Source: a virus (taxonomy: Duplodnaviria; Caudoviricetes). From it: 63,552 bases of DNA. A program made the translations under genes and the position numbers. Numbering within the stretch: position 1 is the first letter of the stretch; every line of letters starts with the position of its first letter. Below, piece after piece: positions 32,269 through 60,334 of this stretch. The notes beneath the pieces are model-generated. The model was not told where the DNA came from. It did no database searches and saw nothing but the letters and a program-made list of their open reading frames with translations. The stretch lies in the IMG/VR virus record IMGVR_UViG_3300050343_000084, positions 1-63,552 of that record, one strand, 5' to 3'.

Positions 32269-32481
32269 ATGCCAAATATGAGTTATTGCCGCTTCGAAAA
32301 CACGGCAAAAGATATGAGAGACTGCATCTACGCGATCGAAGAGCGTGATGTGTATGAATTCAGTAGTTATGAACTATCTGGATTTAAAGATTTGCTAGAA
32401 TATGCGCGGGACATTATAAACATGGAAGACGATATTGAAAAAATAATTGAGTACTATGAATCTCCTGACACAGAACAGTAA
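32269..32481 (+). CDS. Conserved phage hypothetical protein
   Basis: MPNMSYCRFENT N-terminus. Confidence 0.65.
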   Translation: MPNMSYCRFENTAKDMRDCIYAIEERDVYEFSSYELSGFKDLLEYARDIINMEDDIEKIIEYYESPDTEQ

Positions 32482-33061
32482 ACTAAAAAAGACAAGTAAA
32501 GAACTCGGGCTTCGCGTGTTCAACTTCGGTATACCTGCATATAAATCTGCAAGTGGTAAGTTGACATGCCCGATGGCTGACGAATGCGTTAAATTTTGTT
32601 ATGCCAAGAAAGGAGCCTACATCTGGTCTAATGTAAAACCGGCGTTTGAGAAGCGTTATCAGCTAACAAAGACTGACAACTTTGTTGAGGCTATGAACGC
32701 TGAAATACGTAAGAAGAAACCTGATTACGTCAGAGTCCATGATAGCGGAGATTACTACTCACCCGCATATCTAAAAAAGTGGATCGAAGTTGCTATACAC
32801 AACCCAAGCGTACGGTTTTACAGTTATACCAATATGATAGATATGGTGTTAAAGACCTCATTGCCAAGTAATTACGATATAATATTTAGTGATTCAGGCA
32901 AACAAAAGCATATGATAAATGAAAGAAAACATAGACACACAAAAATCTTTTCTACTAATAGCGATCTTGTATCTAACGGTTATGTGGATGCTTCTAGTAT
33001 TGATCTGATGGCAACAAAGTGGTTCAGTAAAAACCACAAAGTGGGATTAGTATTCCATTAA
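32447..33061 (+). CDS. Phage Gp88-like protein (Cys cluster, RxHDSGD motif)
   Basis: TCPMADECVKFCYA...VRVHDSGDYY...FYSYT. Confidence 0.7.
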   Translation: MSTMNLLTQNSKLKKTSKELGLRVFNFGIPAYKSASGKLTCPMADECVKFCYAKKGAYIWSNVKPAFEKRYQLTKTDNFVEAMNAEIRKKKPDYVRVHDSGDYYSPAYLKKWIEVAIHNPSVRFYSYTNMIDMVLKTSLPSNYDIIFSDSGKQKHMINERKHRHTKIFSTNSDLVSNGYVDASSIDLMATKWFSKNHKVGLVFH

Positions 33062-34555: not shown

Positions 34556-35059
34556 ATGAATATATTTTATTTACACCCAGACCCAGCTAAAGCGGCTAGT
34601 TTCTTTTACGACAAGCATAAGGTTAAAATGATTCTGGAGTCGGCGCAAATGTTATGTACTGCACATCATGTATATAACAACGGTGACAATGTGCCATACA
34701 AAAAAGCACACCTTAATCATCCAAGTACTATATGGGTACGTGATAGTATACACCACTACAATTGGTTGTACGATCACATGCTTGCATTAGGTAAAGAGTA
34801 TACAGCTAGATACAATAAGCATCACCTTAGTATTGCTAAGTGTCGTGAAGCTTTAATGTACCCGCCTTCAGGTATGCCCGATAATGGATTTATCCAACCG
34901 CCTCAATGTATGCCTGACGAATACAAAGAGCTTAGTAGCTTAGCTGCGTATTGGAATTATTATGAACAAGAAAAACACACAGTAAAAAATAAAAATGAGC
35001 AAAAAATTATACGACCACATTATATCAACGAATTATGCGAACATTACGAAGAAAGTTAA
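34556..35059 (+). CDS. Pyrimidine-dimer DNA glycosylase (DenV-related) family protein
   Basis: MNIFYLH...DKHKVKMILESAQMLCTAH...HLNHPSTIW...PQCMPDEYK. Confidence 0.75.
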   Translation: MNIFYLHPDPAKAASFFYDKHKVKMILESAQMLCTAHHVYNNGDNVPYKKAHLNHPSTIWVRDSIHHYNWLYDHMLALGKEYTARYNKHHLSIAKCREALMYPPSGMPDNGFIQPPQCMPDEYKELSSLAAYWNYYEQEKHTVKNKNEQKIIRPHYINELCEHYEES

Positions 35060-35229: not shown

Positions 35230-35265
35230 CTAATATATAATAAATAGTAAGAAGCTAATGTCATA
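35219..35265. repeat. Spaced inverted-repeat site, copy 3 (TGCGAC-N35-GTCATA), overlapping the start codon of the HTH gene
   Basis: TGCGACGATAGC...GCTAATGTCATA; ATG at 35258 lies in the right arm. Confidence 0.65.
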
Positions 35266-35878
35266 CTACGACCGAAATACCAAATATCTAGAGCAGCATC
35301 GTATTATATACCGGCAAAATCCAACAACAGACGAACCAACGGAATCGTTTGACTGGGGCTGGTATTACGAGAGTGGCACACATCAATGCTATACACTCTT
35401 TAATTCGCGGGCTAAAATAAACACATATAAGAGCCTTAAATGGCATCTGTATGTATTATGGTATCTTAATCCTCAAATGGATCAAGAAGCATTCGCGGGG
35501 CTTGTTAAATACGTTTGTAATAAGCGCACAGGGTTTATAACATTCAATGTTTCGGATCAACTCAGGGAAAGCATGATATATGATGTTTCGTTAATGGAAT
35601 TAGATACACCGCCACCTAATAAATTACGTAAAGTTATATTCAAAGACTTCACGGGTTTAGACATGCGACAAAAGCTATCTATAGTAGGTAAGCTAGTCGG
35701 TAGATCTAAAATATCTGAAAGCGAAATATACGATGCGATGTTACTTATAAATGATAGTCAAATTAAAATAACGGTTGCAAGGCTTGCTGATGCACTTAAA
35801 TGTTCAACAAGAACTATATATCGCAATATGAGTAACGAACTTAAAAAAGAAAAAGAATTACTTAATCAACAACTATGA
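35258..35878 (+). CDS. DNA-binding protein with C-terminal HTH (regulator or replication initiator)
   Basis: KITVARLADALKCSTRTIYRNM helix-turn-helix. Confidence 0.7.
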   Translation: MSYYDRNTKYLEQHRIIYRQNPTTDEPTESFDWGWYYESGTHQCYTLFNSRAKINTYKSLKWHLYVLWYLNPQMDQEAFAGLVKYVCNKRTGFITFNVSDQLRESMIYDVSLMELDTPPPNKLRKVIFKDFTGLDMRQKLSIVGKLVGRSKISESEIYDAMLLINDSQIKITVARLADALKCSTRTIYRNMSNELKKEKELLNQQL

Positions 35879-36627
35879 AAAAGTACAATGTACAAAACTA
35901 TATAAGGTATAAGGAAGATCTTAAACGTTCTATGCCCGAAGATAAGTTTTATGATTACTACACAAGAGATGAGTTAATTGTAAAATTTTTACCGCTTGTT
36001 GAGAATTTAGCGCGCAAGTTCGCTACATCAGAACAAGCATCCGGAGTACTAAGTATTAACGATTTAATACAAGAAGGTAGCAAAGGTTTAACTCTTGCGG
36101 TAGATAAGTTAGAATGGGATAAGCTTATTGACTCTGAAGATATTGAAAAAACTTTAAAAAGTTTCTTTAGTAAAAGAATTAAAGGAGCTATAAGACGTGC
36201 AATTGATATTAACCGCGGCGACATACGTATACCAGAACATAAGCTAACTGAAATACGTAAGAATCCTAAAGATGAAAAAATTGTTACAATGTTTTTTAAT
36301 TCTATATTTTCCAGTATAGACGCTAATTATAATACAGATGAAGAAAATCCATTGTTTCAAATACCAGATGAATCTGAACCATATAATATTAATTTACTTA
36401 ATGCTTATTTGTTAAGTTTAATGAAACAACACTTAACAGGTATTGAATATGAAGTATTGAGATTATCATATGGTTTGGATTGCGATAAGCACTCTGCTAA
36501 TTATATAGCGGGTAAATTAAACATAAATGTAAACACTGCAAACGTACGTGTTTCACAGATAAAAAGAGAAGCTATAAATAAACTTATCGCTAACACTGAC
36601 GCAAACCAAGTGATTGATTATCTGTAA
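35875..36627 (+). CDS. Phage sigma70-family RNA polymerase sigma factor
   Basis: Region 2 (ELIVKFLPLVENLARKF...DLIQEGSKGL...RIKGAIRRAI...IRIP) and region 4 (EVLRLSYGL...IAGKL...RVSQIKREAINKL). Confidence 0.9.
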   Translation: MKKYNVQNYIRYKEDLKRSMPEDKFYDYYTRDELIVKFLPLVENLARKFATSEQASGVLSINDLIQEGSKGLTLAVDKLEWDKLIDSEDIEKTLKSFFSKRIKGAIRRAIDINRGDIRIPEHKLTEIRKNPKDEKIVTMFFNSIFSSIDANYNTDEENPLFQIPDESEPYNINLLNAYLLSLMKQHLTGIEYEVLRLSYGLDCDKHSANYIAGKLNINVNTANVRVSQIKREAINKLIANTDANQVIDYL

Positions 36628-36636
36628 GTTATGAAC

Positions 36637-36665
36637 TTAAATGCAATTAAAAATGTGTAATTATA
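36637..36665 (+). promoter_or_regulatory. Class-2 promoter candidate TTAA-N16-GTAATTATA heading the replication operon
   Basis: TTAA ATGCAATTAAAAATGT GTAATTATA, immediately after the sigma gene. Confidence 0.6.
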
Positions 36666-36690
36666 TTAATATACCAAATAAGAAAACCCT

Positions 36691-37227
36691 ATGACCATAA
36701 ATGACAAACTGGCAACGATCCAGACAAAATTTAAATCTAAAAAATCAAGGTTTAATTCATTCGGCAAATACTACTTCAGATCAGCCGAAGACATTCTCGA
36801 AGCAACAAAACCCTTTCTATTAGAGTTAGGAGTTAGCGTAACAATCAATGAGAAATTAACTAGCATTGAGCAATTACCTATTATGGAAACTACAGCTACA
36901 ATTTCTGATGGCGAAAATGCTATACACGCTACGGCTATTGTTGGTGTTGACCTTAATCAAAAAGGTATGCAAACACCTCAGCAGTTTGGTAGTGCGTCGA
37001 GTTATGGAAAGAAGTATGCGTTAGGTAATTTATTCCTAATAGATGACACTCAAGATAGCGATGCTACTAATAACCACGGTAAAGGTGCGAGTGCAACATT
37101 AACATCAACGAAAGATCCAGCATTTGCTAAAGCAAAGGATTATGTGCAAAAAGGCGGAAAGCTTGATGCAATTAAAAAGAAGTACAAATTAAGCGCTGAA
37201 GTTGAAAAAGCGTTAACAACACTATAA
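36691..37227 (+). CDS. ERF-family single-strand annealing protein
   Basis: FNSFGKYYFRSAEDILEA...QQFGSASSYGKKYALGNLFLIDD. Confidence 0.85.
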   Translation: MTINDKLATIQTKFKSKKSRFNSFGKYYFRSAEDILEATKPFLLELGVSVTINEKLTSIEQLPIMETTATISDGENAIHATAIVGVDLNQKGMQTPQQFGSASSYGKKYALGNLFLIDDTQDSDATNNHGKGASATLTSTKDPAFAKAKDYVQKGGKLDAIKKKYKLSAEVEKALTTL

Positions 37228-37958
37228 TGAAAAACAAAGCAGCTATTGAAAAGCTGAGGGACGATGAAAACTACTACGGCAAGTTTGGTAAACAATACTT
37301 GTCTAATAGTGATATTGGAACTTTGCTTACAAATCCTTTAGCGCTTGGTACACCACTAAAACCGTCAGCCGCATTTTTGGTTGGCGGTTACTTTCACACT
37401 GCAATACTTGAGCCCGATAAGCTTAAGAAGTATAAGATAGTTGAAAGTTCTACGCGGAATACTAAAGCGTATAAAGAGATCTCAGGCGGTGAGCTGTGTC
37501 TTCTACAAAAAGAAGTAGATCAAATTGAACTAATGACAGACAAAATGTTAGAGAACGATGTCTGCCGTGGTTTAATACGAGGTACTAAAGTAGATTACGA
37601 ACAGCCTGCGATTACAGAGTTAGAAGGTTTGCAATGGAAAGGCAAAGCGGATATTGTTAATCACGAAGAAGGTTTAATAATTGATTTAAAAACCACGGGT
37701 GATATAACAAAATTTCGCAGCTCAGCATGGCGATACAATTACGACTCACAAGCTTACATTTATAGTAAACTATTTGGTTATGAAATGTTGTTTATAGTAA
37801 TAGACAAAACAACACATCAAATAGGAATATTTGATTGCTCACCTGAATTTTATCAGCGTGGTGCGGACAAAGTTCAACAAGCGGCGGAACAATATAAATT
37901 GTTTTACCAAAACCCGGATTTCGATCCAAACAATTATTTTATTAACAAAACCCTTTAA
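37227..37958 (+). CDS. PD-(D/E)XK exonuclease (RecE/ExoVIII-like)
   Basis: G.YFHTAILEP, KGKADIV, IIDLKTT and YDSQAYIY motifs. Confidence 0.8.
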   Translation: MKNKAAIEKLRDDENYYGKFGKQYLSNSDIGTLLTNPLALGTPLKPSAAFLVGGYFHTAILEPDKLKKYKIVESSTRNTKAYKEISGGELCLLQKEVDQIELMTDKMLENDVCRGLIRGTKVDYEQPAITELEGLQWKGKADIVNHEEGLIIDLKTTGDITKFRSSAWRYNYDSQAYIYSKLFGYEMLFIVIDKTTHQIGIFDCSPEFYQRGADKVQQAAEQYKLFYQNPDFDPNNYFINKTL

Positions 37959-37961
37959 ACA

Positions 37962-38141
37962 ATGGCAAGAACCAGAAAAAACCAAACAAAAGTATGTACA
38001 GTAACAGGAATGGAAACAAGTGTAGATAACTTCTATGCTAACCAGAACCATGTAAAAGCCGTAGACAACTTAAGGCGGAATAGCGGCGCAACTAAAGATC
38101 AGTTGCAAAGAATGTTTAATCAGTTAAATCAATATGCGTAA
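37962..38141 (+). CDS. Small hypothetical protein (59 aa)
   Basis: MARTRKNQTKVCTVTGMETSVDNFYANQ...; fills the gap, TAATG-coupled to the next gene. Confidence 0.6.
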   Translation: MARTRKNQTKVCTVTGMETSVDNFYANQNHVKAVDNLRRNSGATKDQLQRMFNQLNQYA

Positions 38142-38455
38142 TGGCAAGTATAATTAAAACGAGTATCAATTTATCGGAAATCCCGGCGGATAAAATCATT
38201 ACTGGTAAGAAAGGTAAGTATTTACCTATTACAATTACTATAAATGACGAAACAGATCAGTTTGGGAATCAAGGCCCGGTAGTTGTAGCGCAATCAAAAG
38301 AAGAGCGCGAGGCTAAACAAAAGAAAACTTACTTAGGTAATGTTCAAGTTGTTTGGACTAACGGCGACAATGTTGCCGCAGCCCCAAGACAAGACCAACC
38401 AATGCAAGCTGCTCCAGTGGGGCAAGCGGCGCCTGAAGTTGATCTGCCTTTCTAA
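38141..38455 (+). CDS. Putative single-stranded DNA-binding protein
   Basis: Small beta-rich protein with flexible tail ending EVDLPF; in the replication operon. Confidence 0.65.
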   Translation: MASIIKTSINLSEIPADKIITGKKGKYLPITITINDETDQFGNQGPVVVAQSKEEREAKQKKTYLGNVQVVWTNGDNVAAAPRQDQPMQAAPVGQAAPEVDLPF

Positions 38456-38618
38456 TGCAGCAATGCGAAATATGTAATGAGGAAATGTCGCAGGAGGAAC
38501 ACGACTTCTGCGATATATGCCCTAAATGTAGAGAGGAATGGTAGATGAAAACGATTACATTAGTATCAACACAGACAACGATGGTAATGTAACATTAATA
38601 GAAGATTAATTAAATTAA

Positions 38619-40328
38619 ATGCAGACAACAGAGATCAATGGATTTGTTATTGACGAGTTCAATATACATAAGCTTGAAGAGGGCAAGGCACAGGGTATAT
38701 GTCCTGTGTGCTCCCACGATAGAAAACCCAAGAATCAAAAAGCAAAATGTGCTTCTTACGATTGGGAACGGGGTCTCGGTACTTGTCATAATTGTAATAA
38801 ATCATTTCAACTACATACGTATCAGCGCAAAGGCAAAGCCGAAAAGGTTTACGTTAAGCCGGAGCCAGTTGCTATACACAAGCCAGGTACAAAAGTAGAA
38901 GAGTGGTTTAAAACTCGTGGTATATCTCAGGAAACCCTTGCTGATCTTAAAATTAGCGAGGGCCCTGAATATATGCCTCAGACCGGTAAATCCGAGAATG
39001 TAATAAAGTTCAATTATTTTATGGGCGGCGAATTAACTAATGTTAAATACCGTGATGGAAGAAAGAACTTTAAATTATATAAGGGTGCTGAAAAGGTATT
39101 CTACAATATAGATAGCATTGTAGGTTGGGAGTATTGTATTATTGTTGAAGGTGAAATGGACGTATTAGCGTTGCATGAAGCTGGTATAACAAATGCAATA
39201 TCTGTTCCTAACGGTGCAACACTTAATACTAACAACTTAGATTATTTAGACAATTGTATAGATTATTTCGAAGACAAAGAGAAGGTTATATTGGCCGTAG
39301 ATTCAGACGAAGCTGGCCAAGCTTTGCAGACAGAGTTAATACGTAGATTAGGTTCAGAAGTATGTTACTTAGCTACATTTGACGATTGCAAAGACGCTAA
39401 TGAATATTTATTAAAATATGGAAAAGAAAAATTGGCAGAGCGTATTTCGCGAAGCAAGCCAGTACCGCTGGAGAATGTTACAACGTTCAGGGATATTGAA
39501 GACGAAGTTACCGACTTTGTTCGTAATGGCTTTAAACCAGGATTCCAAATTGGCTTACAAAATTTTGATGACATATTTTCGACTTACACTGGTCAATTTA
39601 TTACTGTCACTGGTATCCCTAGTTCCGGGAAGAGTGACTTTGTCGATCAGATGGTTGTTGGGTATAACGCTAATTACGGTTGGAAAACGGCATTCGCTTC
39701 GCCAGAAAATGTTCCAACATATTTACATGCTCATAAGCTAATGCGTAAAACTTGGCAAGGCATGCCGAGTAGAGATGATATTGGTACTGATCGATGGAAT
39801 CAAGTGGCGGATCATTGTAACACTAATTACTTTCATATAGATATGGAACGCTACACATTAGAATCTGTATTAAAGAAAGGTGCTGAGCTTGTTAAACGTA
39901 AAGGTATTAAATGTTTAGTTATAGATCCATATAATAAGGTTAGAGACGTTGATTGTAAAACAGAAGACGTTAATCGTTATACTATGGAGTACTTAACTAA
40001 GATTGAAATCTTTGCTAAGAAGTATGATGTGCTAGTTTTTATTGTAGCACACCCAACTAAGATGTACAAAGATGGCAATGGCAAAATTGAAGAGCCATCA
40101 ATGTATAATATTAAAGGTGGTGGCGAATGGTACGATGCTAGTTATCATGGGCTATTAGTCCACAGAGATTATGAAGCTAAAACTGTTAAAGCTAAAGTTC
40201 TTAAAGTTAAGTTTCAAAACTTAGGCGAGAATGGGGCTGAAGCTCATTTTAAATGGGAACCAAAGTCTGGTTGTTTTATTCCTCACGAGCAAGTTAATCT
40301 TGCTGGCGAGAAAATGCCCTGGGAATAA
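38619..40328 (+). CDS. Primase-helicase (T7 gp4/Twinkle-like)
   Basis: Zn finger CPVC...CHNC, TOPRIM EGEMD and DSDEAG, Walker A GIPSSGKS, VIDPYN, VAHP. Confidence 0.93.
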   Translation: MQTTEINGFVIDEFNIHKLEEGKAQGICPVCSHDRKPKNQKAKCASYDWERGLGTCHNCNKSFQLHTYQRKGKAEKVYVKPEPVAIHKPGTKVEEWFKTRGISQETLADLKISEGPEYMPQTGKSENVIKFNYFMGGELTNVKYRDGRKNFKLYKGAEKVFYNIDSIVGWEYCIIVEGEMDVLALHEAGITNAISVPNGATLNTNNLDYLDNCIDYFEDKEKVILAVDSDEAGQALQTELIRRLGSEVCYLATFDDCKDANEYLLKYGKEKLAERISRSKPVPLENVTTFRDIEDEVTDFVRNGFKPGFQIGLQNFDDIFSTYTGQFITVTGIPSSGKSDFVDQMVVGYNANYGWKTAFASPENVPTYLHAHKLMRKTWQGMPSRDDIGTDRWNQVADHCNTNYFHIDMERYTLESVLKKGAELVKRKGIKCLVIDPYNKVRDVDCKTEDVNRYTMEYLTKIEIFAKKYDVLVFIVAHPTKMYKDGNGKIEEPSMYNIKGGGEWYDASYHGLLVHRDYEAKTVKAKVLKVKFQNLGENGAEAHFKWEPKSGCFIPHEQVNLAGEKMPWE

Positions 40329-40606
40329 TGCCAAGTTTATATGGCAAACGGGTGAAACCAATGCCAAGTTATACGTATAATGAAGAGGAGTTTAAGTGGT
40401 ATAGCTTTTGTGTTAAAAACAATATAAGAATATCACCTTACGGTATACAAGGCGATACAGAGCATTGGCATATAGCAATTAGCTTAGGCCCTTACAAAAA
40501 ATGGGAAAAGCCACACTTGTCACCCAGCAAGTATTGTAGAAAAACAATTTGGCCAGAATACTATAAAATGTGTAAATACTATTATGAGAAATACAATAAT
40601 AAATAA
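40328..40606 (+). CDS. Hypothetical protein
   Basis: 92 aa, translationally coupled. Confidence 0.6.
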   Translation: MPSLYGKRVKPMPSYTYNEEEFKWYSFCVKNNIRISPYGIQGDTEHWHIAISLGPYKKWEKPHLSPSKYCRKTIWPEYYKMCKYYYEKYNNK

Positions 40607-41393
40607 CGATCCCAAATACGCAGAAGCGGATTATGAATTACAATACAGGGATTTATTACTAGACGTAATGGAAAATCATGTAATACGTGACAACGAAAGA
40701 ACTGGAGTTGGCTGCGCATCTACATTTTCTTTAGATATTGATATTGATATATCTAAGCATTTTCCTATATTAAGCGGGCGCAAAATGTTTCCGCATATAT
40801 TTAAATCAGAGTTTAAATGGTTTATCAACGGCGAAACAAATATTAAAACGTTACAGGAAGCTGGTAATAAAATATGGAATGAATGGGCAGATGAGAATGG
40901 AGACTTAGGTCCTGTTTATGGTCATCAGCTTAGAAACTTTAATAGCCAAGGATATGATCAATTAGAGGCTGTAATAAAGAATATAAACGAGAAGCCTGAC
41001 AGTAGACGTCATGTAGTAAGTTTATGGAATCCAGCACAGCTTGAAGAAATGGCTTTGCCTCCTTGCTATTTGTACTTCCAGTTTTTTGTTGAGAAGAACA
41101 ACCTGCATATGTTTGCTCTGCAAAGAAGCGCAGATATATTTCTTGGTGTGCCGTACGATATGGCTTTGTACTCTCAAATTTTGCTATACATAGCTGAGAA
41201 AACGGGTTATAATGCAAAGCGTGTAAACGTTAAGTTTATTGACGCTCACATATATAAGAATCAACAAGAAGCAGTTGAGCAGTACTTAGATGAAGATTTT
41301 AACGGCGCTCCTACATATGCTTTTCACAATGGATTATTAACCTTAAATAATTATCAGCCAGGCAAAGTGATTACTGCGCCAGTAGCTGTTTAA
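40584..41393 (+). CDS. thyA: Thymidylate synthase (ThyA) family enzyme with Asn-to-Asp specificity change; possible dCMP methylase/hydroxymethylase
   Basis: RTGVG, IWNEWA, LGPVYG, DSRR, LPPCY, QRSADIFLGVPYD and DAHIY motifs. Confidence 0.9.
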   Translation: MRNTIINNDPKYAEADYELQYRDLLLDVMENHVIRDNERTGVGCASTFSLDIDIDISKHFPILSGRKMFPHIFKSEFKWFINGETNIKTLQEAGNKIWNEWADENGDLGPVYGHQLRNFNSQGYDQLEAVIKNINEKPDSRRHVVSLWNPAQLEEMALPPCYLYFQFFVEKNNLHMFALQRSADIFLGVPYDMALYSQILLYIAEKTGYNAKRVNVKFIDAHIYKNQQEAVEQYLDEDFNGAPTYAFHNGLLTLNNYQPGKVITAPVAV

Positions 41394-41397
41394 AACT

Positions 41398-42171
41398 ATG
41401 TATAACATTTATCATATTCCTGGTAAAAAGATCGGAGTTACACGTGATCTTAATAAGAGGGTTACGGAGCAGCAAGGTTATGCGCCAGGCGAATACGAAG
41501 TTTTATTTACGAGTGATGATATTAATTTAATATCTAACAAAGAGATAGAACTTCAACAGTCTTATGGCTACAGAAAAGACAGAACATTATATAAAAATTT
41601 ATTTAAATCAAATATGAGAATAAACCCGACAGAACAAACAAGTACGTTTCCAGTACCTATAACAAAGCTTAAAGGCAATCTTATGGACAACATAGGATTA
41701 GAATGGGAAACGCCAGAGTATAAATTTAAATTAGAAAAAGAACATGTACCCTGGATAATGCAGAACGCAAGAACCTCGATGTTTAATGATGATCGAAGCT
41801 ATATATATAATAAGGCTTTCTATGAGGCCTTTTTTAATCTAAAGCATAATCCAAAGGCAACGGCATTAAACAGCGCCAGATTTGATTTAATACGCGATTG
41901 GGCCGCTGTAAGGGGTATATATGACAACGGCGATGGCAAGACGCAATACGTGAAGCTTATGGAAGAAGCAGGCGAGTTGGCTAAAGCTTTATTAACTAAA
42001 GATAAACCTGAAATAAAAGATGCTATTGGCGATATGATTGTAGTTCTTACTAACTTAGCGCATCTTGAAGGTTTTGAAGTTGAGGATTGTATTGACTCAG
42101 CTTATCAAGAAATAGCCGCTAGAACAGGTAAAATGATTAACGGTACATTTGTTAAAACAGAATCATTATGA
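41398..42171 (+). CDS. Fusion of a GIY-YIG-like N-terminus and a MazG-like NTP pyrophosphohydrolase
   Basis: MYNIYHIPGKKIGVTRDLNKR; C-terminal KLMEEAGELA...DAIGDMIVVL...AYQEIAARTG. Confidence 0.75.
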   Translation: MYNIYHIPGKKIGVTRDLNKRVTEQQGYAPGEYEVLFTSDDINLISNKEIELQQSYGYRKDRTLYKNLFKSNMRINPTEQTSTFPVPITKLKGNLMDNIGLEWETPEYKFKLEKEHVPWIMQNARTSMFNDDRSYIYNKAFYEAFFNLKHNPKATALNSARFDLIRDWAAVRGIYDNGDGKTQYVKLMEEAGELAKALLTKDKPEIKDAIGDMIVVLTNLAHLEGFEVEDCIDSAYQEIAARTGKMINGTFVKTESL

Positions 42172-42431
42172 ATAAAAAACAAATAGAGTTTAGAGACCCA
42201 GTTGTTGAACGCGTTGTTGATAAGTTTGTATCAAGATCAGACGTTGGCTTTGCAAAGTACGGCGTAACGCTTAACGATGACAAATCAAATTTGTTTGCTT
42301 GGATTAATCACTTACAAGAAGAACTAATGGACGCTGTGCTATACATGCAAAAATTAAAAGAATCTAGTACAGAAGAGATGCAAGAAGCTTTGCTAAGAAA
42401 TATAGAGATCCATGAGGAGACAACCGTATAA
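42168..42431 (+). CDS. Small all-alpha protein, possible nucleotide pyrophosphohydrolase-like
   Basis: RSDVGFAKYGVTL...WINHLQEELMDAVLY. Confidence 0.5.
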   Translation: MNKKQIEFRDPVVERVVDKFVSRSDVGFAKYGVTLNDDKSNLFAWINHLQEELMDAVLYMQKLKESSTEEMQEALLRNIEIHEETTV

Positions 42432-42873
42432 AAGAAAAAGTAAAAAGCGAGGGCCAGTACAAGCAAAGAAGGTGTCATATGATGGCATCAACTTTGCTTC
42501 AGGGCTTGAGCGCTATATGTATATGGCTTTGAAAAAAGCAAAAATCAAAGCTAAGTACGAAGGGGAAACATTTGTTTTACTTGCTGGTTTTCATTTTGAA
42601 AACGAGGTTTACGAAAGACAAGCTAATGGCAAAGGTGATTACAAAAACAGGGGGTGCAAGCGCATACTACCTATTAAGTACACGCCTGATTTCATTGGTG
42701 AAGATTTCATAATAGAAACAAAAGGCAGAGCTAATGAATCATTCCCTATGCGTTGGAAGTTGTTTAAAAGATTAGTGATGACGCAGTTTCCAAATGTAAC
42801 ATTATACAAACCACAAAATCAAAAAGAATGCGACGAAACAATTCGCCTAATCCTTTCGAAGCGAAAAGGATAG
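42412..42873 (+). CDS. PD-(D/E)XK endonuclease (T7 endonuclease I-like resolvase)
   Basis: FASGLE...YEG...YTPDF...IIETKG. Confidence 0.75.
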   Translation: MRRQPYKRKSKKRGPVQAKKVSYDGINFASGLERYMYMALKKAKIKAKYEGETFVLLAGFHFENEVYERQANGKGDYKNRGCKRILPIKYTPDFIGEDFIIETKGRANESFPMRWKLFKRLVMTQFPNVTLYKPQNQKECDETIRLILSKRKG

Positions 42874-43001
42874 CCAGGCAAAAGTACGCTGAGCGTCAAA
42901 TTGATAAGTTTGTCAAATGGAGTTGGGACGTACGAGGCAAAGTAAAATACAAAGAATTAGTAGAAATAATGGATAAACACAATATAAAAGTATATGGATA
43001 A
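42828..43001 (+). CDS. Small hypothetical protein (57 aa)
   Basis: MRRNNSPNPFEAKRIARQKYAERQIDKFVKWSW..., translated by hand. Confidence 0.45.
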   Translation: MRRNNSPNPFEAKRIARQKYAERQIDKFVKWSWDVRGKVKYKELVEIMDKHNIKVYG

Positions 43002-43143
43002 ACAAGACAAGCCTGAGTGGGCTTTATCCTTTGGGTTATACCCAGGGATATTAATAGGTATGAGAACTTATGAGGAAGAAAAGCAAACGGCATATGTTTT
43101 TTATTTGCCATTTGTGGATATAGCATTGGAGTTTTATAAGTAA
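42994..43143 (+). CDS. Small hypothetical protein (49 aa)
   Basis: MDKQDKPEWALSFGLYPGILIGMRTY...YLPFVDIALEFYK; TAATG-coupled to nrdB. Confidence 0.55.
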   Translation: MDKQDKPEWALSFGLYPGILIGMRTYEEEKQTAYVFYLPFVDIALEFYK

Positions 43144-44111
43144 TGGGATTGTTTGATGAGCGCATAGCGTATAAACCGTTTGAGTACCCTGAGTACTACA
43201 CAGAAGGTTGGCTTAAGCAAGCACAGGCATTTTGGTTACACACTGAAATACCAATGCAAGGCGATATAAAAGACTGGAAAGAAAAATTAACACCAGAAGA
43301 AAAGAATCTAGTAGGTAATATACTATTAGGTTTTGCACAAACCGAATGTGCTGTTTCAGATTACTGGACACAAAAAGTGGTATCATGGTTTCCTAAACAC
43401 GAAATACAGCAAATGGCTATGATGTTCGGATCACAAGAAACAATACATGCTGTAGCGTATAGTTATTTAAATGAAACACTTGGTCTTGAAAATTATGAAG
43501 CCTTTCTCCATGAGCCTGCAACTGCTGAAAGGTTTGATAACCTGGTTAGTTATGGCGGGACAAGCTCTATTGGTATTGGCAAGTCTCTTGCTGTTTTTAG
43601 CGCTTTTGCTGAGGGGGTTAGTTTATATTCTGCTTTTGCTGTTCTCTATTCTTTTCAATTAAGAAACTTATTGAAAGGTATAGGCCAACAAATGAAGTGG
43701 AGTGTGCGAGACGAATCTTTACACAGCAAAATGGGTTGTAAGTTGTTTCGCGATATGTGCAGTGAAAATAATCAATTATTAGAATTATGTCGAGAAGATA
43801 TAATTAAAGCTGCTGAAACAATGGTAAAACTTGAGGGTAAGTATATAGATAAAATGTTTGAGATGGGTGACATTGAAGGCATTAAAGCAAATGATTTAAA
43901 ACACTTTATAAAGAAAAGAACAAATGAAAAACTGGTGGAACTTGGTTATGTTGACCTTGGCTCGTACTTCCCGTATGACAAAGATGCAGCGGCTAATCTT
44001 GATTGGTTCTATCATCTTACCGGCGGGGTCACTCATACTGATTTTTTCGCGGTTCGGCCGACGGACTATTCGAAAGCTGGTGAAGGCGAAGACTTCGAGG
44101 ACATTTGGTAA
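43143..44111 (+). CDS. nrdB: Ribonucleotide reductase class I beta subunit
   Basis: FWLHTE, QETIHAVAYS (radical Tyr), EGVSLYSAF, RDESLH, TDFF. Confidence 0.95.
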   Translation: MGLFDERIAYKPFEYPEYYTEGWLKQAQAFWLHTEIPMQGDIKDWKEKLTPEEKNLVGNILLGFAQTECAVSDYWTQKVVSWFPKHEIQQMAMMFGSQETIHAVAYSYLNETLGLENYEAFLHEPATAERFDNLVSYGGTSSIGIGKSLAVFSAFAEGVSLYSAFAVLYSFQLRNLLKGIGQQMKWSVRDESLHSKMGCKLFRDMCSENNQLLELCREDIIKAAETMVKLEGKYIDKMFEMGDIEGIKANDLKHFIKKRTNEKLVELGYVDLGSYFPYDKDAAANLDWFYHLTGGVTHTDFFAVRPTDYSKAGEGEDFEDIW

Positions 44112-44134
44112 TTTAATAACCGAAGAAGAAATAT

Positions 44135-44407
44135 ATGAAGACCTCTACGACAAAGCGTAGTTTATTAAAAGCGCTTGTAAGACAAAGAAGATTAAAGCCT
44201 CACGAGAGGATAGCAAATAGGTTAGGATATATGGGGACTGGATTTATGATGACAGCTCCCCACCTCCTACCAGATCCGACCGGCATAGTAATATACATTA
44301 TTGCTGGTGTAATATCAATACCGCAGGTATTTGTTGCAAAGCAATGGAACTTAGTAGCGGTTAATTTAAACGTAGCAATAGCCTACACAATACTATACTT
44401 TACATAA
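44135..44407 (+). CDS. Small membrane protein between nrdB and nrdA
   Basis: Two to three hydrophobic segments. Confidence 0.55.
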   Translation: MKTSTTKRSLLKALVRQRRLKPHERIANRLGYMGTGFMMTAPHLLPDPTGIVIYIIAGVISIPQVFVAKQWNLVAVNLNVAIAYTILYFT

Positions 44408-46125
44408 TGTGGAATGAAAACTGGAAAAAAGGTGAGGATTACCCGGCGTGGGGTAATAACGACGTATACAAGAAAACTATATCCGGGGGATATTTATTGT
44501 ACGACGAATCACCGAGAGACGCTTACATGCGGGTTGCTAAGACAGTTGCTCGCAGATTATATAAGCCAGAAATGGCGGAAACTTTTTTTGAATATATCTG
44601 GAACGGTTGGTTATGCTTGGCTTCGCCGGTTCTTAGTAACACTGGTACCGATCGCGGTTTGCCTATTAGTTGCTTTGGCATTGATGTTGCTGACTCGATA
44701 CAAGATATAGGGCAAAAGAATTTAGAGATGATGCTACTCGCTAAGCACGGCGGTGGAGTTGGCATCGGTGTAAATCAAATCAGACCCGCCGGCGCTAAAA
44801 TTACAGGAAATGGAACATCAGATGGAGTTGTCCCCTTTTGCAAAATCTACGACTCAACTATCCTCGCGACTAATCAAGGCTCTGTTCGCAGAGGCGCAGC
44901 ATCAGTCAACATCAATATTGAACACGACGATTTTGAAGAGTGGCTTGAAATTAGAGAACCAAAAGGCGACGTTAACAGACAGTCACTCAACCTTCATCAA
45001 TGCGCAGTTGTTGGTGATAAGTTTATGCGACGCCTTGAACAAGGAGATTCGGAAGCGCGGACTAGATGGAGTAAACTTATTAGAAAACGAAAAGCAACTG
45101 GAGAACCGTATATACTGTTTAAAGGAAATACTAACAAAGCAAATCCGAAAGCATACAAAGACAACGGATTAAAAGTACATATGACAAATATCTGTAGTGA
45201 GATTACATTACACACAGATGAGAGTCATAGTTTTGTTTGTTGCTTATCATCATTAAATTTAGCTAAATATGAAGAATGGAAAGGTACTAACCTTATATAC
45301 GACGCCACGTGGTTTCTTGACGGCGTTATGGAGGAATTTATTCAAAGAGCCAAAGGACTTAGAGGTTTTGAAAATGCCGTTCGTTCTGCTTCAAAGGGAC
45401 GAGCGCTTGGATTGGGTGTACTCGGATGGCACACGTATCTCCAAGAAAAGGGAATTCCTTTTGAAGGTTTACTTGCTCAATTTGAAACTAGGAAAATATT
45501 TTCGCAAATCAAAATCGAAAGCGAACGAGCATCTATGGACCTTGCGGAAATTTACGGCGAACCTCTTTGGTGTGCTGGCACTGGTTATCGTAACACCCAT
45601 CTTAGGGCTGTTGCTCCTACTGTGTCTAATAGTAAGCTTAGCGGTAACGTTAGTCCTGGCATTGAGCCTTGGGCCGCTAATGTTTTCACGGAACAAAGTG
45701 CGAAGGGTACGTTCATTAGGAAGAACCCCACACTTGTAAAGCTTCTTAGAAAACATAAGTTAAATACAAATGAAATATGGGATAAGATACTTGCTGATGG
45801 CGGGAGTGTACAAGATATTAAAGAGCTAGATGAAGTAATGCTAGCGCATGACATACCAGCTAAAGAAGTATTTAAAACCTTTAAAGAAATAAACCAACTA
45901 GAGCTAGTGAATCAAGCAGGCATACGCCAGCAGTACATAGATCAGTCGGTTAGTTTGAATCTCGCTTTCCCAAGTGTTGCTACGCCAAAATGGATTAACC
46001 AGGTGCATATGCAAGCATGGAAGAACGGAATAAAGACTTTGTATTATACTAGAACAGAGAGTGTTCTACGCGGAGATATAGCACAACAAGCTATGGATCC
46101 TGAATGTGCTGCCTGTGATGGTTAG
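44407..46125 (+). CDS. nrdA: Ribonucleotide reductase class I alpha subunit (no ATP cone)
   Basis: PISCF, GGGVG, RRGA, TNICSEI, VCCLSS, APTVS, KTLYY and C-terminal CAAC. Confidence 0.95.
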   Translation: MWNENWKKGEDYPAWGNNDVYKKTISGGYLLYDESPRDAYMRVAKTVARRLYKPEMAETFFEYIWNGWLCLASPVLSNTGTDRGLPISCFGIDVADSIQDIGQKNLEMMLLAKHGGGVGIGVNQIRPAGAKITGNGTSDGVVPFCKIYDSTILATNQGSVRRGAASVNINIEHDDFEEWLEIREPKGDVNRQSLNLHQCAVVGDKFMRRLEQGDSEARTRWSKLIRKRKATGEPYILFKGNTNKANPKAYKDNGLKVHMTNICSEITLHTDESHSFVCCLSSLNLAKYEEWKGTNLIYDATWFLDGVMEEFIQRAKGLRGFENAVRSASKGRALGLGVLGWHTYLQEKGIPFEGLLAQFETRKIFSQIKIESERASMDLAEIYGEPLWCAGTGYRNTHLRAVAPTVSNSKLSGNVSPGIEPWAANVFTEQSAKGTFIRKNPTLVKLLRKHKLNTNEIWDKILADGGSVQDIKELDEVMLAHDIPAKEVFKTFKEINQLELVNQAGIRQQYIDQSVSLNLAFPSVATPKWINQVHMQAWKNGIKTLYYTRTESVLRGDIAQQAMDPECAACDG

Positions 46126-46478
46126 TACGTCCAAATAACGTTAGGTGATTTATCAGGGTCGACATCAATGTGGATAAAAGTATCTGCGATGCCGATCCTG
46201 TTTATACCTAAGTCTAAGAATATATCAATAAGCTCAAATCTATCTTTTGATTTGCGACAATCAATATCAGCAGCTAAACCTTTTAGGTGGGAAGACTTCT
46301 CAGTTCCACCAACATAATCATTATGCTGCGGCGTACGATACCCAGAATTTATATTAATAGGTTTATCAAAGCGATCTCTCGCTTGATCTAGTATTTGTAA
46401 AAAATCCCTATCCATCATCTGCCCAGAGCCCTGCACATCGGGACTATCAAATTCTGAATAATTAAAATACTTCATCAT
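46122..46478 (-). CDS. Peptidase M15 family endolysin
   Basis: INSGYRT..HN..VGG...SSHLKGLAADI...FIHID. Confidence 0.88.
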   Translation of the reverse strand: MMKYFNYSEFDSPDVQGSGQMMDRDFLQILDQARDRFDKPININSGYRTPQHNDYVGGTEKSSHLKGLAADIDCRKSKDRFELIDIFLDLGINRIGIADTFIHIDVDPDKSPNVIWTY

Positions 46479-46633
46479 TACTTTTTCTTTTTAATGTCTT
46501 TCCATTTCGCTATGGTATATCCAATAGTCACTAAGAGCAGCATTATTTTTAAACCATCTTCTATTTGTGTAAAAGTGGTGAGACCAAGTGTACTGCCGTT
46601 TATAGCGTATAATTTTAGTTCTTGTAAACTCAT
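46478..46633 (-). CDS. Small holin-like membrane protein (51 aa)
   Basis: MSLQELKLYAINGSTLGLTTFTQIEDGLKIMLLLVTIGYTIAKWKDIKKKK; directly upstream of the endolysin. Confidence 0.6.
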   Translation of the reverse strand: MSLQELKLYAINGSTLGLTTFTQIEDGLKIMLLLVTIGYTIAKWKDIKKKK

Positions 46634-47520: not shown

Positions 47521-50500
47521 TTAAAATTTTACTTTTCTTCCTGATTCGAAATCTATTGAATCTTTTATTCTTTTATTTTCTATTCTGGTTGCCGCGGCTT
47601 TACGAGCAGACGCGCTTCGTTTTGCTCTTTGCTTAGCGTCATAATCCGCTCTTTCCTCGGGTGTCATAGCAGCGTAATCAGCTAGTTTCTTTTTTCTGTT
47701 TTCTATTCTAGTTTTAGCGGCTTTAATTTTACCCTCAGCTTTTCTTCTAGCTTTACCTTCTGTTTTAACAAATTCTTCCTCTTCTTTTTTAGCGTTAACA
47801 TCCCAGGTTCTCCAGCCAAGACCTAGCATCATTCTTTGATAAGATGTATTACGGGCGTCAAGTGCTTCGGATATACCGTCTAATTCAGCTAAAGCTCTAT
47901 CTAGCGGCAGGTTTAATCCAGCAGATGAAAGTGATGCTAATATTTCGTAATTAGGTGATATGTTAAATCTTCCATTTAAAGTAACATCCCAGCCTTGAGC
48001 TTCTATTACATCTTTGTCAAACTTCTTAGTTTGAATTGCGCCGTATACTTTCCTCATCTTAGAACCTATAGGTGGCGATACGTTTGCTAGTTCTAATAGT
48101 GTATAAGCGTGATCAGCATTATAACCTTTTTTCTCTTCTTTGTAATATCTATTAATAACATTTTTTAATGTTGATATAACAGCGCCTGTTAGTCCGGATC
48201 CCCTAAGAATAGTGTCCACCATAGAATTAACAATTCTTTCAGCCTTTGTATTAATGATTCTTTCGTATTTTTCATCATCTTCTTCTTCATCACCAAATCC
48301 TGGTATTAACGCAAACAATGAATTTTGCAATGCGCTAAATATAAGGTTTTGCACAAACCCGTAATAAGCTATCTTACTAATATTGGTCTTAGCATCGCCA
48401 CGGCCGTTTATAAGATCCTGGCCAGCTTTTTTCATTAATCTAGTGTATTGCATCGGCGTGTTTTGAAAAGCCAATATAAGACGCCCTAAATGGCTCGACT
48501 GTTGTGCAGACACAAGCATAGGGTCACCTGATTGCTGTGTCTCATCGGATATAGCGCTAAAGTCTTCAAATGCTTTTGCTTCTGCCTCTGCCTGTGATAA
48601 ACCCTGCTTCTTATAAGTTTTTGTTCTGTTAATTAAAAACGTAGCTCCTCCTGTCGCAATGGCAAAACTATCCGCTATTTGAGTAGGCGTGAAACCTATT
48701 TTTAATAAGTATGCAATTACAGCGCTTGCTTTGTCTTTACTGTTTTTAGCTTGGTTAGCTATCTCTTGCTCTTGTACGTCTGATTTTAAACCGCCCCGAC
48801 GTTCTTTAAGTTTATCGGAATTGAATATCTTCGACCATGCGCTCCAGTAAGCCGGCTGATTAGCAAATGCCAAACCAGCTTTTAACGGATTATTGTCACT
48901 CCAATTTACAAAGTTAGCAAATGATAACATCTGCATTGCCGCTGACCTACGGTTAAAGAACATTATAGTACCGACAGAGTTATTAACCCAGTTTAACCAT
49001 TGTTGCTCGTAAGCGCCAGGTTGTGCCGGTCTGTTTCTGCCAGACTTCATTCGCGCTATAGAGTTTTTTAAAGCGTTTACATAACGAGTACCGTATAAAG
49101 CCTCAAGCTTAGTTAAATTTTTTTCGTCAAATATAATATCTACATTATCGTTAAACTCTTGTAAATATTCAGATCTTGTTCCAACCTCGTTTATTTGATT
49201 AATATCTTTTAATACAGAGCCCGCTACCCAGTATTCCGCGGGTGATGGCCATTGTTCTTGCTTTGATATTGTTTGAAGACCATCAGCAAACGCTGATAAA
49301 TCAGGATCATTTGCCACAAGGCTATTTAATTTCTTTTGGTCTCTTTTAGATATACCGGGAACTTCTTGGCCTTGCTGTGTCCATAAATATACACGCACAG
49401 CTTGATCAACGGTGTAATCTGTATCGCCAATTTGTTTGCCCAGGCGTTTTTTCATTCCGGGAAACATTTTTAATAATATAGCGAAATCATTTTTAAGAGC
49501 TCGTCTAGCTTTTTCCATAGCAGATATACCTCTCATATACGGCACAACCAAATTATCTTCAAAGAATTTTTGATCAGCTTCGCCTTGCTTGCCTTTGCCG
49601 GCTAATGCGTATGACGTTAGCCCTCTAAAGTCCTCTGCCCCATACGGTAAGAAAACTTTAAATCTACCTTTCTTAGCACCTTCTTTTCGCGCTCTAATTT
49701 TAGAGTATACAGCTTCTGCAGCAACGCCTTTATTACGCTCAATCATTTTATTAAGATCTTGCGATAATCCCATACTCCTTTTCACTCTTGCCTGCTGCAC
49801 TTTCCCTTTAACGTCAAATACATCAAGCACCTCTTTAACAGCTTTAACATTACCCATGTGATCATCCACAAAGTAAAAATCGTTGAACCCATCCGCGACC
49901 TTGCCAACCATCCAGGCGGCTTTTGCGGCGGGTGCGCCGTTAGCAAGTCCAGTTATATTTTCAAGAGGTATCTCTAAGCCTATACCTTTTAAAAATGCGT
50001 GTATAGCAACTGCCGATTCTGCAGGTCTAGCAGTTAATACAAATATATTTTTATTACCAAACTTTTCAATCGCTTTTTTAAGCCTTGGGGCAAGAGGGCC
50101 TGGTGTACCTTTAACAACCTTATTGAATTCGCTAAAGTCAAATGTTGCTCCTTCAGCGGTTAATTGTTCGCTATTTTTAGCAAACTCTGCAGGTGTTATT
50201 TTATATGTCTTACCGTCTTTATTTACAATCACTTGGCTTTTACTGAACGCCAGTGTATCATCAAAGTCATATACACTAATACCTTTAGGGTTCGAGGTGT
50301 AAGAACGCTTGCGGGCATTGTTTATAGCTTTTTGCTGTATCGTTATTTTTTTAACTTCAGCTTCAGCGTCTTTTTTAACCTCAGGCTTAAAGCCTTTTTG
50401 ATTAAAATAATCAGCGTACTGTTGGCCAATAATAGATCCATCTTCTAAAGACTCTAATGCGTATTGCACTTTGCCTCTTGTAGCGAAATTATAATATCTT

Positions 50501-58810: not shown

Positions 58811-60334
58811 TTATGGGCATTCTATTGTTGGATTAAGAGCGGGTGGATTTCCATCGCCTGATATTAATGAAGGTGCCGGGACTACTCGGGCGCATTGCCC
58901 TGTAACAACCCCTCCCGCGAGCACTGTATCTTGTGTAATTGTACCAGTGTCGCAATCAGCATATTCATACACAGAATCTACAGCGCTTTGTGAATTGTCA
59001 AAATCAAATGTAGCGCATGTATACGTCTTAGTGATGTAAGTATCGATGTCATCCGTAAGCGAGTAGCTCATATTCTGTACACCTGTAAATGGCGAAGTAA
59101 TATCAACTCTAAGTGTTAAATCAGAACTTCCTAAATTTAGTAGCTTCGCTCCTTGGGTTATTGTAAAATTACCATCGGCTTCTGTTTTTGTAAAATCGGA
59201 ATCAACTAAAGAGTTGGTGGCTGTCCATGATATAGTGAAGCCTGCTACAGGCGAAATAGTAATATCATGCGTCAAGCTGCCGCTTTGTGTAAAGTTATAA
59301 CTAGCATCCAAAGGCAATGGCGTAGGGTTAGTAACTGAAATATCAGTATCGCCCGAGGTTATTGTTCCGCTTAATTGAATAGAAGTAATAACTCTTCTTT
59401 GGAAAACTATTGGATTAGGCTGATTAAAATCAGGGCTTAAATCCGTTCCGGGAACAACAAATGTTAAATTATGTGTTTGGGTCGATGTTACCGCTGGGAA
59501 TGTTATAGGTACAAGCTCTTGGCCAGACGGTAATATACCTGTAATAGCATTTGTGCCGTTAGAAAAAGTAGCACCATTATCTATTGTTAAAGAATAATCT
59601 GCCCCTTGAACACCTGTTATAGCTAGATTCCTAATCGTCTGCGTAGCTGGAACCGTTGTATTTATTGAATACCCAGTTACATATTCTAAAATAATTGGTA
59701 TTTCAATAGCATGAGCGTATACGTCTATTTCATCACCGCTATGATTTACAAAAGGATATGTGTAGTCTGCATTAACTCTTATAGCGGTTAATCTATTATT
59801 TGAATCAAATACAGATGCTGAAGTATATAGATTGTAATCAGTAGGGTCGCCAGTTCTAAGAGATATAGTTGGGGTAGATTGAAAGTAATAACCTGTGTCT
59901 GCTTGTATAAGCTGCGATAATATTTCTTCTGTGCTTTCAGCAGGGCCTGAATTAGAATAGCTAACAGTGCTAGTCAACGGCGTGGCATTTTGTGTATCAT
60001 AAAACACATCGCCATCTATTGTCACCCCAAGTTCTTGAGCCGCTCCACGCATACATATTTTTATATCAAGATTGTAGTTAGGCATAGTTGCTGTTGTTAC
60101 AAAAACTACTGTCAATATAACGTTTTCGCCATCTTGCGTAAAATAAGAACCAGGTACATCTACCTCTGGGTTTGATGAAACAACCGTAAAATTACTTGCT
60201 TCAATCTCGTAACCCTGATTGGGCACTATTGTTAATACAGCCTGAGGAGCAACGCTGCTTATTAAACCTCCGCCTGGTATTACAAATTCTTGCGATGTTA
60301 CCGTAAAATTATCTATTGCTACTATATTACTCAT
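58811..60334 (-). CDS. Beta-rich tail/structural protein
   Basis: 507 aa, T/S/V-rich Ig-like composition. Confidence 0.55.
   Translation of the reverse strand: MSNIVAIDNFTVTSQEFVIPGGGLISSVAPQAVLTIVPNQGYEIEASNFTVVSSNPEVDVPGSYFTQDGENVILTVVFVTTATMPNYNLDIKICMRGAAQELGVTIDGDVFYDTQNATPLTSTVSYSNSGPAESTEEILSQLIQADTGYYFQSTPTISLRTGDPTDYNLYTSASVFDSNNRLTAIRVNADYTYPFVNHSGDEIDVYAHAIEIPIILEYVTGYSINTTVPATQTIRNLAITGVQGADYSLTIDNGATFSNGTNAITGILPSGQELVPITFPAVTSTQTHNLTFVVPGTDLSPDFNQPNPIVFQRRVITSIQLSGTITSGDTDISVTNPTPLPLDASYNFTQSGSLTHDITISPVAGFTISWTATNSLVDSDFTKTEADGNFTITQGAKLLNLGSSDLTLRVDITSPFTGVQNMSYSLTDDIDTYITKTYTCATFDFDNSQSAVDSVYEYADCDTGTITQDTVLAGGVVTGQCARVVPAPSLISGDGNPPALNPTIECP

Follow-up and report, generated by a model that had tools for sequence, protein, structure and literature searches.

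A thymidylate synthase homologue with Asp at the dUMP/dCMP specificity position as a predicted 5-methyl-dCMP synthase in an uncultured Caudoviricetes phage

The canonical thymidylate synthase (TS; EC 2.1.1.45) selects the uracil of deoxyuridine monophosphate (dUMP) by means of an asparagine, Asn177 in Escherichia coli ThyA. Does a phage homologue in which this residue is aspartate still make thymidylate, or does it act on deoxycytidine monophosphate (dCMP)? The question is raised by a 269-amino-acid (aa) ThyA homologue encoded in the IMG/VR virus record IMGVR_UViG_3300050343_000084 (Duplodnaviria; Caudoviricetes), which was analysed over its whole length of 63,552 bases (hereafter, the window) and is rated about 99% complete. 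A sequence-only reading had proposed a candidate cytosine-modification pathway based on this enzyme, and our results, which fit a published residue rule and published assays, point in the same direction. We consider it reasonably probable that the protein is a dCMP C5-methyltransferase (5-methyl-dCMP synthase) of the Xp12/PaMx74 type, and that its product would enter the phage DNA as 5-methylcytosine by way of host kinases. The coordinates of the features are collected in Table 1.

Family membership and active-site residues

The 269-aa protein belongs to family PF00303 (246.2 bits against a cut-off of 24.3, E = 4.2e-73; residues 20-268 aligned to positions 2-265 of the 266-position profile) and is the single match to this family in the whole record. 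It was assigned to phrog_160 in the PHROG database (E = 5e-80), and its top-scoring relatives in the PDB were without exception thymidylate synthases (6auj, for instance, at E = 3.6e-56). Six-frame family searches of the record, which were also used for the other gene families discussed below, revealed neither ThyX nor a second TS, nor a C5 DNA methylase. The protein passed the NCBIfam model TIGR03284 for thymidylate synthase (213.5 against 108.35 bits), but stayed below the cut-off of the stricter equivalog NF002497 (247 against 327 bits) and below those of NF002496 and NF002499.

The residues were compared in an alignment of ten rows, which included E. coli ThyA, the ThyA of phage PaMx74 and gp42 of phage T4 (35%, 25% and 18% identity to the 269-aa protein, respectively). 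The equivalents of the catalytic and binding residues R21, E58, W80, W83, Y94, R126/R127, C146, R166, D169, H207 and Y209 are all present, with little or no variation at these columns across the alignments. Asn177 is replaced by Asp192, which lies within QRSADIFLGVPYD, aligned by HMMER to QRSAD.FLGVPFN. The nucleophile Cys161 and Leu158 are kept, and E. coli His147 has become Tyr162, the motif PPCY being aligned to PPCH/APCH. A scripted check confirmed Leu158, Cys161, Tyr162 and Asp192. The sequence-only reading was thus accurate about the Asp codon, about the change from PPCH to PPCY and about the spacing, as Cys161 lies 31 residues upstream of Asp192, the same distance as between C146 and N177 in E. 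coli. Leu158 (E. coli Leu143), Trp101 (Trp83) and the C-terminal tail (ITAPVAV; IKAPVAI in E. coli) are also kept. His147Tyr, together with Phe176Tyr and Ser180Leu, is a further change fixed relative to E. coli ThyA in the clade described below.

Conservation and phylogeny of the specificity residues

Among the 59 IMG/VR loci found with the 269-aa protein, the 14 closest form a clade of 51-100% identity, and the pattern Cys-Tyr ... Tyr-Asp occurs in all 14 of them. The Leu158-Tyr162 motif was invariant in a 17-row alignment of the clade. As the same pattern is present in every related locus, the Asp/Tyr signature is not a matter of chance. The remaining 45 loci comprised 42 with Asn, two with Asp in combination with His147, and one truncated sequence. 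Locus searches aimed at independent Asp-type lineages, with two more representatives, yielded only three loci.

A broader comparison was based on the 150 best representatives, at 50% identity, from a library of 1.8 billion proteins. Position 177 was Asn in 114 and Asp in 32 of these, and four were fragments without this column. Position 147 departed from His in 22 of the 32 Asp-type sequences vs. a single one of the 114 Asn-type sequences.

The phylogenetic comparison suggested by the sequence-only reading was carried out with FastTree on 159 rows, with three representatives shorter than 200 aa left out and four trait columns removed. The 269-aa protein was placed in a starred clade of ten Asp/Tyr rows (support 97), separately from PaMx74, which sits elsewhere on a long branch with an unsure placement. 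The tree requires a minimum of 18 changes of the Asp/Asn label, five of them forced by starred branches, which points to a switch that arose or reverted repeatedly.

Predicted product and mechanism

According to the available excerpts of the cited sources, no TS positions tell virome contigs with modified cytosine from unmodified ones better than 177 and 147 (PMC8670742), and five of seven Asp-type virome TS enzymes, as well as the TS of Xp12, made 5-methyldeoxycytidine (5-methyl-dC) in E. coli DNA when T4 gp1 was co-expressed (bioRxiv 10.1101/2024.12.05.627091). The same kind of source material describes what separates methylation from hydroxymethylation. Leu143 keeps water out, and T4-like hydroxymethylases as well as the 5-hydroxy-dCMP synthases of RB69 and DLP3 have Asp or Glu at this position (PMC13326640). 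The C-terminal tail of E. coli TS, which closes the site for methylation, is absent from the T4 dCMP hydroxymethylase (PMC6400193). Of 41 Asp-type rows in our alignments, 39 had Leu at position 143, that of the 269-aa protein included; T4 gp42 had Asp there and ended early. The sequence-only reading had named 5-methyl-dCMP and 5-hydroxymethyl-dCMP side by side; because Leu143 and the tail are both kept, the predicted product is the former and not the latter.

In the proposed mechanism, a TS-fold enzyme would be retargeted from dUMP to dCMP. Cys161 would attack C6 of dCMP, and Asp192, in place of the uracil-reading Asn, would read and protonate N3/N4 of the cytosine. Methylene-tetrahydrofolate would donate the carbon, and the exocyclic methylene intermediate would then be reduced by hydride transfer to give 5-methyl-dCMP and dihydrofolate; reduction by this route is suggested because Leu143, Trp83 and the C-terminal tail, which seal the site, are all retained. 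Host kinases would phosphorylate 5-methyl-dCMP to the triphosphate, from which the host replisome would insert 5-methylcytosine into the phage DNA, where it would shield the genome from many restriction enzymes. Among public bisulfite runs, from which the genome could be assembled without conversion if it were fully methylated, none was listed as containing positions 36001-46000.

The adjacent MazG-type protein

The gene following that of the TS encodes a 257-aa protein, and the two genes, only 4 nucleotides (nt) apart, stay together in all 14 related loci, down to 51% and 44% identity. The sequence-only reading had described the next two genes as MazG-like or pyrophosphohydrolase-like. Our searches confirmed this for the C-terminal part of the 257-aa protein, but not for the 87-aa protein encoded after it. 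The MazG domain of the former matched PF03819 (28.4 bits, cut-off 22) and PF01503 (24.8 bits, cut-off 21.3), along with phrog_1992 and phrog_715 ('MazG-like pyrophosphatase'). The acidic residues E189, E190, E193, D208 and D212 (EExxE ... DxxxD), which we take to be metal-binding, were invariant in the 16 sequences of the family. An AlphaFold2 (AF2) model of the protein (predicted local distance difference test score, pLDDT, 82) was compared with known structures by Foldseek and VIA-align, with rows covering residues ~141-257. It aligned with 1vmg over 82 residues (Z 10.1, root-mean-square deviation 2.3) and with the MazG-like enzyme 7ody of S-2L (Z 9.2). The structural neighbours of the domain include deoxycytidine triphosphate (dCTP) pyrophosphatases (dCTPases), HisE and the dATP/dGTP-specific S-2L enzyme alike. 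The domain plausibly acts as a dCTPase; by hydrolysing dCTP to dCMP, this co-transcribed partner would supply the methylase with substrate and at the same time lower the pool of competing dCTP.

The N-terminal domain of the 257-aa protein is less ordinary. Residues 2-55 were modelled as strand-strand-helix-strand-helix (pLDDT 83-92), with Y5, K11, G13, T15, R21 and E49 invariant, and some relatives on contigs of 59-66 kb have this part as a short protein of its own. T5orf172 was matched by 10 and MUG113 by 9 of the 16 family members, with a best E of 0.004 and all matches under the Pfam cut-offs. The Atlas feature hits were viral clusters with T5orf172 in 11-48% of their members. A protein search returned at least 8000 candidate homologues of the 257-aa protein, from sources including Tara and other marine metagenomes.

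A complex prediction with two TS copies and the 257-aa protein scored 0.00, which counts neither for nor against binding. At one locus (L010, 1440-1560), on a 4.1-kb contig, TS and the 257-aa homologue share one frame of 519 aa. Its junction reads as a deletion, in which the TS has lost its tail and the partner its first ~22 residues; the fusion was treated as an assembly artefact or a defective variant and given no weight as Rosetta-stone evidence. A search among longer proteins gave no TS-MazG fusion, its three hits carrying other domains.

The 87-aa gene is present in 11 of the 14 related loci. Its family has 21 invariant columns, including RSDVG, KY and QEE..DA..Y, but no Pfam family was found for it, its PHROG matches were families of unknown function, and the Atlas gave unnamed viral clusters only. 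Its assignment as MazG-like found no support, with an hhalign probability of 0.1% against the MazG protein, nothing below E = 0.17 in a profile search of the PDB, and an AF2 model (pLDDT 62) for which Foldseek gave no match.

Evidence against methylation and alternative explanations

Several observations weigh against a phage genome carrying 5-methylcytosine. The six-frame searches gave no match at E ≤ 1 to dCMP deaminase (PF00383) or dihydrofolate reductase (DHFR; PF00186), no DNA polymerase of the Pol A or Pol B families and no thymidylate kinase, and the only true Walker A motif in the record is that of the primase-helicase. The sequence-only reading had likewise seen no dedicated deoxynucleoside monophosphate kinase. 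With these genes absent, the phosphorylation of 5-methyl-dCMP, the recycling of dihydrofolate and DNA synthesis itself would all be left to the host. The flux to 5-methyl-dCTP is therefore uncertain, the more so as the published in vivo assays added the T4 gp1 kinase. The residue rule is imperfect, too: two of the seven Asp-type enzymes in the preprint, in the excerpts available, gave no 5-methyl-dC, and the five that did give a realistic success rate for the Asp rule. Moreover, over the whole window CATG and GATATC both occur less often than expected (99 times vs. 165 expected, z = -6.2, and once vs. 18 expected, z = -4.8, respectively); GATC is not avoided. The avoidance may be a hint that restriction still acts on sites with cytosine, but its meaning is ambiguous, and 5-methylcytosine does not block every enzyme.

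The link with MazG is also not specific. PF03819 was searched in 49 records out of the 59 TS loci and matched in 12 of 12 clade records, all of one lineage, and in 7 of 37 non-clade records. It lay within 6 kb of the TS in 5 of 35 Asn-type records (four over the cut-off, one directly adjacent) and was found in neither of the two other Asp-type (His147) records. Among phages, the closest relatives of this MazG domain are found in those of Staphylococcus, Brochothrix and Paenibacillus, which are not known to be cytosine-modified. As the domain also occurs near Asn-type TS genes, a MazG gene beside a TS is common in phage nucleotide-metabolism blocks and by itself no sign of a dCTPase. Independent support for the pairing with a pyrophosphatase comes from the PRA-PH gene that precedes the Asp-type ThyA of PaMx74 and from the neighbour list of the preprint, in whose available excerpts PRA-PH/MazG-type domains are among the commonest neighbours of Asp177 TS homologues (bioRxiv 10.1101/2024.12.05.627091).

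Part of this evidence would suit a working thymidylate synthase that converts dUMP to thymidylate (dTMP), perhaps with relaxed dUMP/dCMP specificity, in a phage with ordinary cytosine. Such an enzyme would account for the 35% identity to E. coli ThyA, the catalytic residues retained save Asn177 and His147, the TIGR03284 match and the position within an ordinary nucleotide-supply block with ribonucleotide reductase, as well as for the lack of a kinase, deaminase or polymerase alongside and the avoidance of two cytosine-containing palindromes. It is nevertheless unlikely, as Asp and His147Tyr are jointly fixed throughout a clade spanning 51-100% identity, non-His residues at position 147 are nearly confined to Asp-type sequences, and the stricter equivalog model was failed.

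We give a smaller chance to a second explanation, by which dCMP would be methylated but the host would deaminate 5-methyl-dCMP or its triphosphate mainly to thymidylate, leading to an alternative dTMP route or to partial replacement of cytosine. The excerpts of the preprint describe a deaminase that converts 5-methyl-dCTP to dTTP in 5-methylcytosine phages (bioRxiv 10.1101/2024.12.05.627091), and the present phage has neither a canonical ThyA or ThyX nor a dedicated kinase driving the flux to the triphosphate. With no deaminase in the record, however, such a route would be wholly reliant on host activity, and the MetaGPA data, in the excerpts available, tie Asp-type TS to modified DNA (PMC8670742).

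A dCMP hydroxymethylase or 5-hydroxy-dCMP synthase similar to T4 gp42, RB69 gp48 or DLP3 gp80, supplying 5-hydroxymethylcytosine or 5-hydroxycytosine for decoration, has the ThyA fold, the catalytic Cys and the Asp at the specificity position in common with the 269-aa protein, but is very improbable here given Leu instead of Asp or Glu at position 143, the tail that the T4 enzyme lacks, the 18% identity to T4 gp42 and the absence of any glycosyltransferase match at the Pfam cut-off in the record.

Comparison with known systems

The predicted dCMP methylase resembles the module of Xanthomonas phage Xp12 and of Pamexvirus relatives, for which Pseudomonas phage PaMx74 (JQ067093) served in the comparison, in its Asp177, Tyr176 (PYD) and non-His residue at position 147, and in the neighbouring all-alpha nucleoside triphosphate (NTP) pyrophosphohydrolase. 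In the excerpts available, Xp12 TS is described as making 5-methyl-dC in vivo, and both phages as replacing cytosine by 5-methylcytosine (bioRxiv 10.1101/2024.12.05.627091). The gene order in PaMx74 is PRA-PH pyrophosphatase, ThyA (PCP ... PYD) and dCMP deaminase. Its ThyA differs from the present enzyme in having Pro rather than Tyr at position 147 and in the low identity given above, and its pyrophosphatase, with an N-terminal PRA-PH domain, has another architecture and was not significantly similar to the 257-aa protein when the two were compared. PaMx74 also has a dCMP deaminase, a DHFR and its own DNA polymerase, none of which was found in this record; of the companion set of Xp12-type phages (pyrophosphatase, dCMP/dCTP deaminase, DHFR), only the pyrophosphatase is present here. 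It is in this dependence on the host that the phage differs most from Xp12-type phages, and the same dependence is the main source of uncertainty about the extent of cytosine replacement.

The Asp177 TS homologues of the MetaGPA study share the diagnostic positions 177 and 147 with our protein; as far as the available excerpts go, they were chosen for a neighbouring dCMP-deaminase gene, which is missing in this phage (PMC8670742; bioRxiv 10.1101/2024.12.05.627091). The engineered enzymes E. coli ThyA N177D and Lactobacillus casei TS N229D are dCMP methylases (cited in PMC8670742, in the excerpt available). ThyA N177D has the same scaffold and the same switch from Asn to Asp, and the 269-aa protein keeps the tail and Leu143. 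Unlike the engineered enzymes, the natural one also has the fixed changes His147Tyr, Phe176Tyr and Ser180Leu.

The lineage is new, but this kind of enzyme, its diagnostic residues and its pyrophosphatase neighbour have already been published and assayed. For the present protein, the data directly show the fold, the catalytic residues, the conserved Asp/Tyr signature and the conserved gene pair; the substrate and product, the dCTPase specificity of the partner, and whether and how far virion DNA carries 5-methylcytosine are inferred by comparison. The gain would be one of breadth rather than a new principle. Two points alone are less ordinary, namely the N-terminal domain that precedes MazG in the 257-aa protein and the small size of the gene set. 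If the prediction is true, a widespread uncultured marine phage group has 5-methylcytosine DNA, which would bear on host restriction, methyl-dependent defence, methylation-sensitive library preparation and nanopore basecalling. It would also mean that pre-replicative cytosine replacement is workable with a minimal gene set on host kinases and a host polymerase. A far bolder proposal, which we regard as a long shot, is that an abundant marine phage group, probably infecting flavobacteria, achieves full replacement by 5-methylcytosine with two core genes alone, while encoding neither a polymerase nor a kinase or deaminase; the partner of the methylase would be a single polypeptide with a GIY-YIG-type nuclease and a dCTP pyrophosphatase. 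Such a partner would degrade cytosine-containing DNA and dCTP and thereby supply the methylase. In T4, the host-DNA nuclease and dCTPase roles belong to the separate proteins EndoII and gp56, of which this polypeptide would be a one-protein counterpart.

Genome context

The TS gene lies in a tightly packed early block on the plus strand that runs from the primase-helicase through the 92-aa open reading frame (ORF), the ThyA homologue, the 257-aa and 87-aa genes and a DUF1064/resolvase-like gene to a class I ribonucleotide reductase. The ribonucleotide reductase pair, 0.7 kb downstream on the same strand, gives a context of deoxynucleotide supply.

Table 1. Features of the early block around the predicted dCMP C5-methyltransferase gene (positions in the window).
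Feature	Position	Strand	Remarks
Primase-helicase	38619-40328	+	Nearest isolated phage: Cellulophaga phage phi10:1
92-aa ORF	40328-40606	+	23-nt overlap with the TS start; tblastn matches in 10/14 related loci; Pfam and PHROG searches gave no family
ThyA-family enzyme, 269 aa, predicted dCMP C5-methyltransferase (5-methyl-dCMP synthase)	40584-41393	+	PF00303, phrog_160, PDB relatives
Leu158-Pro-Pro-Cys161-Tyr162 codons (E. coli Leu143 ... Cys146-His147)	41055-41069	+	Alignments
Tyr191-Asp192 codons (E. coli Phe176-Asn177), dUMP/dCMP specificity position	41154-41159	+	GAT at 41157-41159
257-aa protein, whole gene	41398-42171	+	Begins 4 nt after the TS stop
257-aa protein, N-terminal ~147 residues, conserved domain, weakly T5orf172/MUG113 (GIY-YIG superfamily)-like	41398-41838	+	
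257-aa protein, C-terminal MazG-type all-alpha NTP pyrophosphohydrolase domain (residues ~160-257), candidate dCTP pyrophosphatase	41875-42171	+	
87-aa conserved phage protein	42168-42431	+	Start overlaps the stop of the 257-aa gene
Class I ribonucleotide reductase, small subunit	43143-44111	+	PF00268, E = 5e-57
Class I ribonucleotide reductase, large subunit	44407-46125	+	PF02867, E = 5.5e-93

A megablast search with positions 38000-46500 of the window gave no match to isolated phages. For the primase-helicase, the nearest isolated phage was Cellulophaga phage phi10:1 (44% identity), and the sources of identical or near-identical proteins were Tara and other marine metagenomes; on these grounds, the host is likely a marine flavobacterium. 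A scan for promoter-like sites found 22, fewer than the shuffle mean of 27, and is uninformative for a likely Bacteroidota host.

Also encoded in the early block is a pyrimidine-dimer DNA glycosylase domain, within a protein of 167 aa (34556-35059, plus strand; PF03013, E = 2.8e-7; phrog_624). In the excerpts available, Xp12 and AXL1 are described as having an endonuclease III-like gene beside the pyrophosphatase (PMC9206674), and, as modified cytosine is predicted for the present phage, its DNA glycosylase may merit a look.

The sequence-only reading had reported no glycosyltransferase, and we found none at the Pfam cut-off in the record, PF00534 giving no match and PF00535 a best match of 11.2 bits (E = 0.01). 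This sub-threshold glycosyltransferase-2 match is carried by a GP88-family protein of 204 aa (32447-33061, plus strand; PF17338, E = 1.4e-38) and was dismissed as noise. The GP88-family protein had no relative in the PDB, and PF17338 was not mentioned in the literature searched.

Elsewhere on the plus strand, a sigma-factor-like protein (35875-36627; phrog_351, E = 1e-19; weak Sigma70 r2/r4 matches) is preceded by the gene of a 206-aa protein with a C-terminal helix-turn-helix (35258-35878). The large genes on the minus strand are structural, and among the structural genes lies one for a GroEL-type chaperonin of 517 aa (17471-19024, minus strand; phrog_5725, E = 6e-138). A 2878-aa ORF (47521-56157, minus strand), with no PHROG family at E ≤ 1e-5, adjoins a peptidase M15 gene (46122-46478). 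The ORFs at the two ends of the window (1-2505 and 60334-63396, both on the minus strand) match different parts of the profile of one virion structural family, phrog_14478.

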